Counted from the first letter of the stretch, positions 2,249 through 17,040 are shown. The stretch is DNA of 52,549 bases from Candidatus Onthoplasma sp. (GCA_045614345.1 JAZLCR010000002.1:1-52549), one strand, 5' to 3'. Notes: generated by a model not told the origin, from the sequence alone. Numbers and translations are program-made.

Positions 2249-2278
2249 TTGATTAAAATAGTGTCAATGTGTTAAAAT
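2249..2278 (+). promoter_or_regulatory. putative sigma-70 promoter of the giant-lipoprotein/sipW operon
   Basis: -35 TTGATT (2249-2254), an 18-nt spacer, and an extended -10 TGtTAAAAT (2270-2278). An A-tract-rich region lies upstream. The RBS AAGGGG sits 7 nt before the ATG at 2302. Confidence 0.4.
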
Positions 2279-2301
2279 ATAACTAAATAAAAGGGGTTAA
2301 T

Positions 2302-5300
2302 ATGTCGCAAGTAAAAAAAGCAAAATGGGGTTTATTAATAGTTTTTATATTTATGTCGTTTTTTATGTTTGGATGCGACAAGTCGGTTCCTGTTAACGAT
2401 ATTCATTTTGACTTAACCGATGGGAAACAAATAGTTTTGATGGTTGGTCAAACCTTGGATATGAAAGATAGGATTGTGATAACTCCATCTTATGCAACAA
2501 ACCAACATTACACTCTCACAAGTTTTAATGAAGATATTGTTGGTGTTCAAAACAAGTCGTTGGTCGCTGTTTCCGAAGGTGCAACTCAGATTAGAATTGT
2601 TTCTGAAGATAATGAGTTAAAAGAAGATCTCATGACAGTTATTGTTAAGAAAACAAAAACAACATTGAATGCTCCTTTAAACTTGAAATATGATAATTCA
2701 ACTCAAAGTTTTAGCTTTGATGCTGTAACTTATGCATCTTCATATACCTTCAAAATTGATGGTGAAGAATTTGATTTGGGCAATAGTACAGTGTTTAACT
2801 TAAGTCAATATCGCGGGCAAGCTTATGATAGACCGTTAGTTGTTCAGGTTAAAGCAAACGCACCAAGTTATACATATGCCTTAGAGGGTTCGAGATATTC
2901 TGAAGAATATAAAATTTATCAGGCTGGCGAATTAAAGAACGTTGAGGTTAAAGCGGGAGTTTTATCTTTTGAAAAAACAGTAGGGACAATTCCTGTTAAT
3001 ATCTATTTTAACAATGAATTGCAAAACACAAACAAAGAAACATCAAGAGTTGTTACTGTTTCACTAAAAACTTTGGAAGAAAAATATTCAAACACAACAA
3101 TGAAAGTTGGGGTTCAGGCAATTATTGATCAAAGCATTAAAGACAATTTAGGTAATGAAATTGAGTATTTTGACTCTATTAGAAAAGAAATTGACCTAAA
3201 AGTAATTGAGGTTCCAGAAATCACATTTGGTGTTGGGGAAATTTCATGGCAAAACATTCTTTATGTTGGAAGTTATGATATTTACGTTGATGGCAAAAAG
3301 TGTGCCGAAACAACTGATAGTTACTTTGATTTGAGCAAGATGGCTAATTATGATAAATTGCTTAATGAAGATAGTGAGCATGAGATTAAGGTTGAAGCTC
3401 AAATTGCTTCTGATGCGATAAATATTGGCAGATCAAAGAAAAGTAGTTCAATTAGAGTTAAAAGATTAAGATCAACAACAATCAAGTGTGAGGGTACTCG
3501 TGTTTGTTGGGATGGTGTCGAAGATGCTCTTTATTATAATGTTTCATTATTTAACACGGATCAAAATGAGGTTTTCTTAACGGCATTTTCAACAACTCTT
3601 TTAGAACATGATATGGCAGAAATGGGGTCTGGCAATTATAAGATTTCTGTTCAGGCTGTTGCTGATGTTTCATTGAGTGGTCAAGGAATTTATTATGTGG
3701 CATCGAAAAGTGTAGAACTTGCGTTTAATAAGCTGGCATCAATAAAGGCAGAAATTAAAAACTATAAACTTAGAATAAGTAACTTGGGAACGGGCTCGTG
3801 TGAGGCGGATTTTGACGTTGATGATTTTGATATGCAAGTTAAAGGAACTGGTGGGTTGGTTGAAATTAATCTTGCAGATCTAACATTTCCAGCTGGGCAT
3901 CACTCTATTGTTTTAAAAAGAGCAGGTGATGAAGATTCAATCGAAAGCGACAGCACAGTTCTTGAGTTTACGCAACTTGAAAAAATAACAGAAATCAAAA
4001 TTGAAGATGGTGAAATGTTTGTTGATCTGTCTGATGCGAACAACGGGGCAACTATTAGATATACCGTAACAGGTGGGACACTCGTAACGCCTTTTTGGCC
4101 AACAGGTAGGTATAAATTTAATACAACAAACCCTGGTGAAATGAATTTCTTGGGCGCTGGCGAGTATGAAGTGGGCGTTCAGGTAATAGGTGACGGAACT
4201 AACACATTCTCTTATAGAGAGTCGGGAGTTGTTGTTGAGTGTGCAACAAGGATATTTTATGTTTTGGATATTCCAACAGCTGAAGTGAAAGATTCATCAA
4301 AGTCCGAGTTTGAATTTGTGAGCATGGCAAATGTTAGCAAATATGGTATTTATAAAATTGAGAATGGGGTGCCGGAGTTTGCTAATGAATCTGAAACAGT
4401 CATTTGTGACTTTGAATTGGAATCAGGAACATGTTGCTTTGGATTACAAGCAATTGGTGATGGTTCGAATTATTTAAATTCTTGCATATCTGAACCTGTG
4501 GTTGTAACAAGACTTGAATCACCAACTCTAAAATATAATAGTGCAACAAAGATTGTTTCATATGTAGAGCCTAACAATGCTGATCTTGTTGCTGGTCACG
4601 TGTTGACACAAGATGGTGATATGATTGAATATGACTTCTTGTCACCAATGGAATTAAAAAATTCCACAACATTAGCATACAAAACAATTGCGGTTGTCAA
4701 AAAAGATGATGTTTATTATCTCAATTCATGGCCAAATGAGTTGAAGTTGACCAAAATTTCAAGCGATGTGAACATTTCATTAAACGACGACAATAACATT
4801 GTTATTGACGCTGTTGATCATGAGGCAGAATATTTGCTTAAAGTTGTAATTAATGATGGTGTGAATGTGTATAACCTAAACTCTGAAGGTGGAAAACTTA
4901 TTGGAGATGGTGTTGAACTTGAATATGAATATACTGATAATAAATATATCATTGAAATAATAAAAGATTTCAATATTATAATTGATGACCTTAACGAGAG
5001 TTTCAATATTAAAGTTGAATTTATTCACCAATCAACTGGTGATGATAGTGTAATCAATAGCGAACCTGTGGATGCAGATCTTGAATTTGTTAATCTCAAC
5101 AATTTGGCAACCATAACCATTGATGAACACAACAGAATAGTAATCAAATCAGAGATTGAAAAAGAATGTGGATTAATTATTAAAATCATAGGAAACTCTG
5201 TGTTAACATTCGTTGGCAATGGAGACAAACTTGTTTCAAATCATAATGAATTAGATTATTATTATGAAGATGGATCTTACTATATTACAATTCTTGATGA

Positions 5301-16225: not shown

Positions 16226-16238
16226 GAAGGAGGGGAAA

Positions 16239-17006
16239 ATGAAGAAAAATTACAATCTTAATACAACCAGTGATATTCCATTGGAAGCTTCGTATAGTAC
16301 CCCAATAAAATCATCAACAACAAAAACAACCTCAACAAAGCCAAAAATTAATGCCATCGGAAAGAAGGCAACAACAAAACTTGATAACAAATCGAGCAAA
16401 ACAACAACTAGTAAATCAAGTCAGGCGAAGAAACAAACAAAAGATGCAAAAAAAGATAAGAGAATAGAGGATTTAGAAAAACTCAATGAAGAGAATTTTA
16501 AATCGTTTAGTACAAAAACTAAGCGTAATAAAGTTGTTATTGTGTTGCTCTCAATTGCAATAGCAATAGCGATTGCTGTTATCACTGCATATGTTATAAT
16601 TATAAAGTTAGACACAAACTGTGCTGTGCATGTGCATGGTGCAAATGCGGTGTGTCTTGTTGGTGGCGAAGACCTGGCTGAATTTAGATCACCGGCGAAT
16701 CTTCAGGGTAATAGTATTTTCAATATTGATTTGAAACTCAAAATCAATGAGTCTGGTCAGTTTAAGATAAGATTTAAGCCTGAATGTTTCCAAAATGGAG
16801 CTTTGATTGAAAATACATTAATTTATGAGGCTAATTTAGAGCTGTTCTTTGAAGATGTTGATGGGTATTACACATCGAAAAATCCAATAAGCGGAAATCA
16901 AACAATTCAATTGTGTGGAGGAATAATTTTAGATTATAATTATGAAAACACATTGAACGTGGGTAATTTTAAATTAGATTTTCATGTTTATTTAGAAAAA
17001 ATTTAA
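16239..17006 (+). CDS. type-II membrane protein, 255 aa: Lys/Thr/Ser-rich cytoplasmic tail, one TM, ~130-aa extracellular beta-rich domain
   Basis: I prefer the ATG at 16239, preceded by the RBS GGAAGGAGGGG, over the track start at 16188, which overlaps the previous gene. The TM is VVIVLLSIAIAIAIAVITAYVIIIKL. It is the last gene before the terminator. Confidence 0.72.
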   Translation: MKKNYNLNTTSDIPLEASYSTPIKSSTTKTTSTKPKINAIGKKATTKLDNKSSKTTTSKSSQAKKQTKDAKKDKRIEDLEKLNEENFKSFSTKTKRNKVVIVLLSIAIAIAIAVITAYVIIIKLDTNCAVHVHGANAVCLVGGEDLAEFRSPANLQGNSIFNIDLKLKINESGQFKIRFKPECFQNGALIENTLIYEANLELFFEDVDGYYTSKNPISGNQTIQLCGGIILDYNYENTLNVGNFKLDFHVYLEKI

Positions 17007-17040
17007 ATATAAGGAGATCTCCTTATATTTTTTATTTTTT
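17007..17040 (+). terminator. intrinsic terminator of the sipW operon
   Basis: Perfect palindrome ATATAAGGA-GATC-TCCTTATAT followed by a T-run (tttttatttttt). Confidence 0.75.

Follow-up and report, generated by a model that had tools for sequence, protein, structure and literature searches.

The subject of this analysis is a row of six genes at positions 2249-17040 of a 52,549-nt stretch of DNA from Candidatus Onthoplasma sp. (GCA_045614345.1 JAZLCR010000002.1:1-52549). This whole stretch is referred to as the window, and all coordinates are counted from its first letter unless another locus is named. The genes encode a predicted giant GLUG-motif lipoprotein, a Sec11/SipW-type signal peptidase, three secreted proteins with a SipW-cognate-like signal, and a candidate membrane anchor. 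We propose that together they may build a TasA/BsaA-like surface fibre. The six open reading frames (ORFs), genes 1 to 6, follow one another on the + strand with spacers of 27, 1, 19, -7 and 13 nt, and a Shine-Dalgarno-like run precedes every start. Both the shared direction and the spacings had been described in an earlier account made from the sequence alone (the sequence-only reading), and the ORF list matched them exactly. The genes and their associated features are listed below, with a slash marking a predicted cleavage site.

1984..2301, no strand assigned: divergent, AT-rich intergenic region from cysS to gene 1, presumed operon promoter, including a promoter-like site at 2249-2278
2302..11535, + strand: gene 1, predicted lipoprotein of 3077 amino acids (aa), lipobox MFGC at Cys25, sub-threshold Big_2-like N-terminal domain
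10861..11385, + strand: C-terminal GLUG-motif region of gene 1 (aa 2854-3028), six GG[ILVA][VLAI][GSAD] motifs ~30-38 aa apart
11563..12201, + strand: gene 2, predicted Sec11/SipW-type (ER/archaeal-type) signal peptidase I, 212 aa, catalytic Ser52, His88 and Asp107
12203..14818, + strand: gene 3, predicted secreted all-beta multi-domain protein, 871 aa, TTG start, signal peptide ending G27-V-T29-Y-C31/F32
12287..12301, + strand: predicted SipW-type cleavage motif of gene 3, T29-Y-C/F-N, aligned by eye on the TasA site A27/A28
14838..15578, + strand: gene 4, candidate major subunit, predicted beta-sandwich, 246 aa, signal T28-Y-S30/Y31-F32, flexible arm at residues 31-46
14919..14933, + strand: predicted SipW-type cleavage motif of gene 4, T28-Y-S/Y-F, from pattern scan and homologue alignment
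15572..16225, + strand: gene 5, remote gene-4 paralogue, 217 aa, signal T30-N-S32/W33-F34-T35, 7-nt overlap with gene 4
15659..15673, + strand: predicted SipW-type cleavage motif of gene 5, T30-N-S/W-F, from pattern scan and homologue alignment
16239..17006, + strand: gene 6, predicted bitopic membrane protein and candidate anchor, 255 aa, from a nine-orthologue alignment
17005..17040, + strand: intrinsic-terminator-like hairpin (11-bp stem, GAUC loop) and T-run at the operon 3' end, dG -10.2 kcal/mol, z = -2.6

The operon organization is supported by comparative evidence, far better than by scans of the single sequence. Related loci (L001-L009, L017, L020 and L021) were reached through homologues of genes 3 and 4. 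They lie in metagenomes and in metagenome-assembled genomes (MAGs) named Candidatus Onthoplasma or 'Clostridia bacterium', and the cassette recurs in at least 10 related loci. The full six-gene order with tight spacing was found in L001, L003, L004, L005, L006, L008, L009, L020 and L021; partial cassettes are present in L007 (genes 4-6) and L002 (genes 3-6 plus downstream genes), and L017 holds a distant gene-4 orthologue within a gene 3-4-5 arrangement. Every locus that is long enough has the same order, starting with a giant ORF, which is followed by a ~210-aa peptidase, a protein of ~800-1400 aa, and then proteins of ~230, 210 and 215-400 aa. Eight orthologous loci have a spacer of 8-28 nt between genes 1 and 2; in a ninth, L003, these genes overlap. 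A hairpin and T-run with differing stem sequences directly follow gene 6 in seven of eight other loci (L001, L003, L004, L005, L006, L008 and L020). Co-transcription of genes 1-6 as one operon is predicted. A caveat is that all loci come from one lineage, in which synteny extends even to a second giant gene and to sufC, sufB, spoIIID and the PP-loop gene downstream.

The large and membrane components vary in size among these loci, with genes 4 and 5 steady at ~200-250 aa: the gene-3 orthologue of L021, a distant relative (10001-14311 of that locus), is enlarged to 1436 aa and has a faint PF27223 (YdeJ) match, and the gene-6 orthologue of L020 has 397 aa.

Upstream of gene 1, cysS (cysteinyl-tRNA synthetase; Pfam tRNA-synt_1e) occupies 598-1983 on the minus strand, so the operon promoter must lie in the 318-nt AT-rich spacer between the two divergent genes. 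The upstream promoter-like element that had been pointed out is indeed present (9/12 match, TG-extended), but AT-rich DNA like this contains such sites as often as expected by chance (91 across the region against 81.8 +/- 9.1 in shuffles), and the element therefore carries no weight. As the counts from both the promoter and the terminator scans of the region were at chance level, neither was used as evidence. At the 3' end, the 'single strong terminator' proposed after gene 6 proved real as a hairpin (17005-17030) with a T-run reaching 17040, but 'strong' overstated it, given the calculated dG and the G-C content of the stem (2 of 11 pairs). The terminator scan required a minimum of three G-C pairs and for this reason left the hairpin unlisted. 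For gene 6, an in-frame TTG at 16188 would add 17 aa (16188-16238) and create an overlap with gene 5. Translation probably starts at the ATG at 16239, because it is preceded by a strong GGAGGGG Shine-Dalgarno run and the orthologues begin MKK[DE]YN.

Judged from its sequence, gene 2 is a divergent Sec11/SipW-type signal peptidase. It matched TIGR02228 (sigpep_I_arch) with E = 3e-13 and 49.9 bits, marginally under the cut-off of 51.85, and scored 47.4 bits against the Bacillus SipW equivalog model NF046067, for which the cut-off is 190. It is thus a predicted member of the superfamily and no equivalog of Bacillus SipW. The Ser, His and GDN boxes and the N- and C-terminal membrane layout attributed to it earlier were borne out by an alignment to human SEC11A (7P2P; phmmer E = 1.7e-4), in which the SGSxEP, HR and GDN boxes coincide, and by eight orthologues, in which S50, S52, H88, H105, G106 and D107 are invariant. 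By inspection, the orthologue alignment also contains conserved hydrophobic stretches at aa ~21-41 and 180-200.

Genes 3, 4 and 5 carry what resembles a SipW-cognate signal, an assignment supported by motif position, conservation and distant homologues. Each protein begins with a Lys-rich n-region and a hydrophobic stretch, which ends in GVT-Y-C/F, LT-Y-S/Y-F and VT-N-S/W-F, respectively, and the motifs GVTYCF, LTYSYFSA and VTNSWFTSE that had been read at these N termini are present. The pattern T[YFWN][SAC][YWF][FN], which was defined post hoc, occurs only three times among the window's 81 six-frame ORFs, starting at residues 28-30 of genes 3, 4 and 5. In the narrower form common to these three, T-[YN]-[SC]/[YWF]-[FN], the motif falls within residues 28-33. 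In TasA, the SipW cut is fixed at GGGTWA/AFND (A27/A28) by the identity of the TasA sequence with PDB entry 8AUR from residue 28 onward; an alignment on this cut puts Thr at -3 and either Ser or Cys at -1 in each of the three. Homologue alignments show no variation at Y31 and F32 of gene 4 (29 homologues) or at T30, N31, W33, F34 and T35 of gene 5 (14 homologues), and almost none at G27 and T29 of gene 3 (67 homologues).

The SipW-cognate signal model TIGR04088 (cognate_SipW; cut-off, 19 bits) did not match genes 3-6 at E <= 0.1 or their first 60 residues at E <= 10. The 28 most distant full-length members of the gene-4 family, which form a sister clade, carry G-x-T-Y-A-Y-F-S-A, and 16 of them matched TIGR04088 (best, 29.4 bits). 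Ten of the 28 also matched Peptidase_M73 below threshold, over its N-terminal 30 profile positions (best E = 1.1e-4), and four weakly matched the BsaA family model TIGR04090 (E >= 0.004). As these distant orthologues are homologous to gene 4 over the full length (hhalign, 99.9%, E = 9e-32), the SipW-cognate signal is supported transitively. Gene 6 has no SipW-type motif; therefore, three substrates are likely rather than the four originally proposed. Profile searches of the ORFs at 11563-17006 placed gene 2 close to the TIGR02228 cut-off; neither TIGR04088 nor Peptidase_M73 matched any of genes 3-6.

Class III signals of the type IV pilin kind were dismissed on inspection, as no G/F-x-x-x-E pattern is present. 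Elsewhere in the window, the N-terminal hydrophobic segment of an ORF of 1070 aa without a Pfam match (40707-43919, + strand) ends in GLTTYYF, a sequence similar to the motif of genes 3-5; comparison with the gene-4 profile by hhalign was negative both for this protein and for gene 1. On an unrelated metagenome contig (L022, 48-1216), an ORF of 186 aa, the first 37 residues of which match the G-x-T-Y-A-Y-F-S signal, directly follows an ORF of 190 aa. The two may represent a canonical pair of a small SipW and a TasA-like protein.

Profile comparison identifies genes 4 and 5 as remote paralogues. Their hhalign score was 92.8% and rose to 98.1% (E = 7e-14, ~107 columns in the N-terminal half) with a 120-sequence gene-4 profile; BLASTP among genes 3, 4, 5 and 6 detected no similarity, and the paralogy surfaced only with profiles. 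The gene-4 family is large, comprising 191 clusters at 50% identity in an exhaustive profile search. No Pfam or NCBIfam family matched genes 3-6, including when the N-terminal 60 residues were scanned alone. PDB sequence searches with single sequences and three profiles returned nothing relevant, tblastn of a distant gene-4 orthologue against plasmids gave no match, and a metagenome scan with the distant-orthologue profile recovered one irrelevant locus.

The AlphaFold2 (AF2) model of gene 4 (predicted local distance difference test [pLDDT], 83.7) is all-beta, with low confidence at about residues 31-40, just past the predicted cut. That of gene 3 (pLDDT, 89.5; predicted TM score [pTM], 0.86) consists of stacked beta-sandwich domains and is disordered at residues 31-40; a Foldseek search of this model returned only generic chains of the multi-Ig/macroglobulin (MG-domain) type. 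Gene 6 has a Lys/Ser/Thr-rich N-terminal tail of ~110 aa, a transmembrane segment at ~aa 96-122 and a conserved C-terminal ectodomain of 130 aa. Residues 109-173 of gene 3 are collinear with the C-terminal strands of gene 4 but weakly so (hhalign, 9-57%), and the gene-6 ectodomain, also collinear, likewise gave nonsignificant values against the gene-4 family (26-48%). Both were rejected as gene-4-like domains since their probabilities were too low, and they are regarded as a lead and not as a finding.

The assignment of gene 1 as a lipoprotein is confirmed at the level of its predicted lipobox, which by inspection is kept as [LVM]FGC (MFGC in gene 1 itself; LFGC or VFGC in the full-length orthologues of L020 and L021). 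The interior of the protein is a long all-beta repeat region without Pfam matches. The GLUG assignment made previously held, as the C-terminal 277 aa scanned alone reached 28.7 bits with Pfam Glug (PF07581), above the gathering threshold of 20.5; on the whole 3077-aa protein, the score was only 15.2 bits and sub-threshold. The FN3 domains also ascribed to gene 1 could not be substantiated. No fn3 match was obtained at E <= 0.1 with the whole protein or at E <= 0.05 with seven segments, and six W...Y.Y-like sequence patterns are its sole FN3-reminiscent trait. The second giant ORF in the window (20153-40345, + strand) encodes 6730 aa with a classic lipobox, FAGAC, and ~30 GLUG-like GG[ILV][VAL][GA] motifs along its length. 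Orthologues of 4700-7000 aa follow the cassette in the loci that reach far enough (L001, L003, L004, L020 and L021), and truncated copies are present in L007 and L009.

Several features of the cassette have counterparts in characterized fibre systems. In Bacillus subtilis, TasA polymerizes by insertion of residues 28-38 into the next subunit, and TapA provides a similar strand (PMC9674648). The sipW-bsaABCRSD operon of Clostridium perfringens encodes two TasA-like paralogues, BsaA and BsaB, together with the 70-kDa protein BsaC (PMC7395162). Residues 28-38 of BsaA, right after the SipW site, are disordered in monomer models (PMC11580942), and BsaA polymers are membrane anchored and not sortase linked (PMC7395162; PMC11580942). 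Members of the TasA/BsaA family reportedly often have fibronectin-domain, LPxTG and SpaA proteins as neighbors, and an operon may hold several of their paralogues (PMC11580942).

The bsa operon is similar to the present one in belonging to Clostridia and in combining a SipW-type peptidase with two small paralogous secreted beta-rich proteins and a large secreted protein. The arm after the SipW site is disordered in the BsaA models as in those of genes 3 and 4, and the weak TIGR04090 matches of four distant gene-4 orthologues point in the same direction. In contrast to bsa, the cassette has no two-component regulator, no vWA domain in its large protein and no evident Asn-Glu-Lys isopeptide triad; the peptidase is its second gene rather than its first, it includes the bitopic gene 6 and a predicted co-transcribed 3077-aa GLUG lipoprotein, and no window protein reaches the threshold of any BsaA or TasA model. 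With B. subtilis tapA-sipW-tasA and B. cereus sipW-tasA-calY it shares a dedicated Sec11-type peptidase, a signal ending in G-x-T-aromatic-small/aromatic-F (Bacillus TasA-family consensus GGGTYA/YFSD, compared with LTYS/YFSA in gene 4 and VTNS/WFTS in gene 5) and a minor partner with a similar N terminus (TapA and gene 5, respectively). The last strands of TasA (G-N-S-I-K-L-Q-F-S-F-E-A-T-Q) and gene 4 (G-Q-S-L-L-I-T-I-S-L-E-A-V-Q) look alike, but the similarity is weak (E = 0.011). Unlike in the Bacillus operons, the gene order is different and genes 1, 3 and 6 are additional large components, and the mature domains have no homology to TasA detectable by Pfam, by Foldseek or, past the N terminus, by hhalign.

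Two further comparisons are looser. Archaeal bundling pili (AbpA of Pyrobaculum calidifontis) are similar in concept, with a Sec11/archaeal-type peptidase, TasA-like beta-sandwich subunits and donor-strand complementation (PMC9245690). However, no sequence or structural match to them was found here, and none is among the Foldseek matches listed for the gene-4 model. The giant GLUG-motif surface proteins of Firmicutes resemble gene 1 in their C-terminal GLUG repeats, very large size and repetitive all-beta character, but gene 1 is predicted to be anchored by an N-terminal lipobox instead of LPXTG, its remainder has no recognized domains, and it is coupled to a SipW cassette. Since multi-paralogue SipW/TasA operons beside large surface proteins have already been described, the present operon is not new in kind, and the novelty initially claimed for a TasA-type module that includes a giant GLUG/FN3 lipoprotein is weakened accordingly (PMC7395162; PMC11580942). 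What is new here is subunits that escape current models, the cassette's own membrane protein and a giant lipoprotein as the first gene, within a logic shared with known operons.

Candidatus Onthoplasma is placed in the Christensenellaceae by NCBI and has been assigned to the GTDB family UBA1242 (PMC12306168); L008 (JBKSNA) comes from MAG KY236-132 of that study. UBA1242 genomes of ~0.76-0.92 Mb lack most biosynthetic pathways but retain sporulation genes, and the organisms have been proposed to be obligately partner dependent (PMC12306168). Attachment machinery is undescribed for UBA1242/Onthoplasma (PMC12306168).

On this background, our analysis favors, at a rough probability of 0.55, the proposal that the six-gene operon of this reduced-genome Christensenellales lineage builds a TasA/BsaA-like surface fibre. 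Gene 2 would cleave the products of genes 3-5 after the small -1 residue (C31, S30 and S32, respectively), exposing an aromatic, flexible N-terminal arm on each. Mature gene 4, as the major subunit, and gene 5, as a paralogous minor subunit or TapA-like nucleator, would then polymerize outside the cell through insertion of the arm into the neighbor's beta-sandwich, after the manner of TasA and BsaA. The 871-aa gene 3 could be added as a tip or adaptor and the bitopic gene 6 could anchor the assembly at the membrane, with the 3077-aa GLUG lipoprotein encoded by gene 1, co-transcribed, displayed alongside. The whole would act as an adhesive apparatus on the cell surface, with partner cells or gut surfaces as plausible targets. 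The fibre proposal is favored by the AF2 models, in which genes 3 and 4 are confident save for residues 31-40 past the predicted cut. Because operons with several TasA/BsaA paralogues are known (PMC11580942), the paralogy of genes 4 and 5 was also counted in its favor.

A number of observations weigh against a fibre. No protein in the window matched Peptidase_M73, TIGR04088 or TIGR04090, even at lenient thresholds, and Peptidase_M73 (PF12389) was at threshold in none of 29 close gene-4 homologues either. The gene-4 model had no Foldseek match in the PDB at E <= 0.001; TasA (5OF2) ranked 46th (E = 0.42, TMq 0.17), amid generic jelly-roll and beta-sandwich folds. The TasA/camelysin fold expected of the downstream proteins was therefore not demonstrated. 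Against a shallow profile of seven Bacillus sequences, drawn from plasmid records annotated 'TasA family protein', hhalign gave 58% over 29 N-terminal columns for the distant gene-4 orthologues, 19.6% over 98 columns for the 120-sequence gene-4 profile, and 2% for the close homologues; such similarity as there is between gene 4 and Bacillus TasA does not reach past the signal and N-terminal arm. Neither gene 3 nor gene 6 resembles gene 4 at a significant level. The residues of gene 3 past the predicted cut are not conserved, so gene 3 may not donate a canonical strand or may stay membrane anchored. An Asn-Glu-Lys triad is not evident in the gene-4 family alignment, and a BsaA-type isopeptide 'lock' was rejected for this family as no invariant Lys or Glu was seen. 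Finally, only adjacency, in a single lineage, ties gene 1 to the candidate fibre genes.

These observations leave room for readings without polymerization. Genes 3-5 might be processed by the SipW-type peptidase and yet form, together with gene 6, a stoichiometric complex in the envelope. This would serve the giant lipoprotein, for example by scaffolding it, passing it through the wall or holding it. The lack of a detectable TasA fold would fit such a complex, as would the compactness of gene 3 (pTM, 0.86), which resembles macroglobulin or integrin-leg domain stacks and not a pilus subunit. The tight, conserved coupling to gene 1 and the presence of a second giant GLUG lipoprotein nearby in every locus also speak for it. 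However, the conserved aromatic arm right after the cut, disordered in monomer models, is a hallmark of donor-strand exchange in TasA and BsaA (PMC9674648; PMC11580942), and two small paralogous subunits resemble known fibre operons; we consider the complex unlikely. It is more doubtful still that gene 2 serves a minimal genome as its housekeeping type I signal peptidase, perhaps without a second such enzyme, and that it owes its place to inherited synteny rather than to a dedicated module. Genomes under 1 Mb with extensive gene loss (PMC12306168) lend this idea some credence, as do the restriction to a single lineage in which the downstream sufC-sufB-spoIIID-PP-loop genes are syntenic too and a score just under the TIGR02228 cut-off but far under that of the Bacillus SipW equivalog. 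Nevertheless, only the three genes that immediately follow gene 2 carry the special motif, both giant proteins use lipoboxes instead, and the 1-nt spacing between genes 2 and 3 suggests translational coupling. Furthermore, the Sec11-type peptidases of characterized Firmicutes are specialized rather than housekeeping enzymes (PMC7395162).

Sporulation genes are unexpectedly retained in UBA1242 (PMC12306168), and the cassette could on that account build a structure associated with the spore (a component of its coat or of an appendage, for example) instead of a vegetative surface fibre. This seems very unlikely, as spoIIID lies on the opposite strand, set apart by the suf genes and the terminator, and no evidence of a sporulation-specific promoter was obtained. 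At the other extreme, the surface-fibre proposal can be extended, with little confidence, to a dedicated attachment organelle composed of the cassette and both giant GLUG lipoproteins. In such an organelle, a SipW-dependent fibre with mega-adhesins would allow ultra-small, metabolically dependent Firmicutes (UBA1242/Onthoplasma) to attach to their partner cells within the gut, and the subunits would be a structurally distinct branch sharing only the SipW signal and donor arm with TasA and BsaA.

The 14.7-kb operon and the second, 20-kb lipoprotein gene represent a heavy investment in one window; judging from the MAG sizes in PMC12306168, the two giant genes would take up ~3-4% of a genome under 1 Mb. 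The cassette architecture is retained in every related locus examined, suggesting an important surface function. If genes 3-5 do form a fibre, then donor-strand fibres of the TasA/BsaA type extend to a branch invisible to Pfam and NCBIfam models, and uncultured gut symbionts gain a concrete adhesion candidate. If they do not, the locus would still cleanly illustrate how a Sec11-type peptidase is dedicated to three cognate substrates.

The interval that separates the cassette from the second giant gene (17129-19944) holds sufC-like and SufB/D-like genes on the + strand, followed by spoIIID and a TilS-like PP-loop gene, both on the - strand. The suf-spoIIID-PP-loop order is kept in most related loci, and spoIIID in a reduced genome fits the sporulation-gene retention reported for UBA1242. 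ORFs of 535, 154, 137 and 227 aa at 48426-52309 and one of 153 aa at 39-500 are all without a Pfam match. In the window's last 2.5 kb, the GC content falls to 0.28 and the positive GC skew of the remainder is lost.

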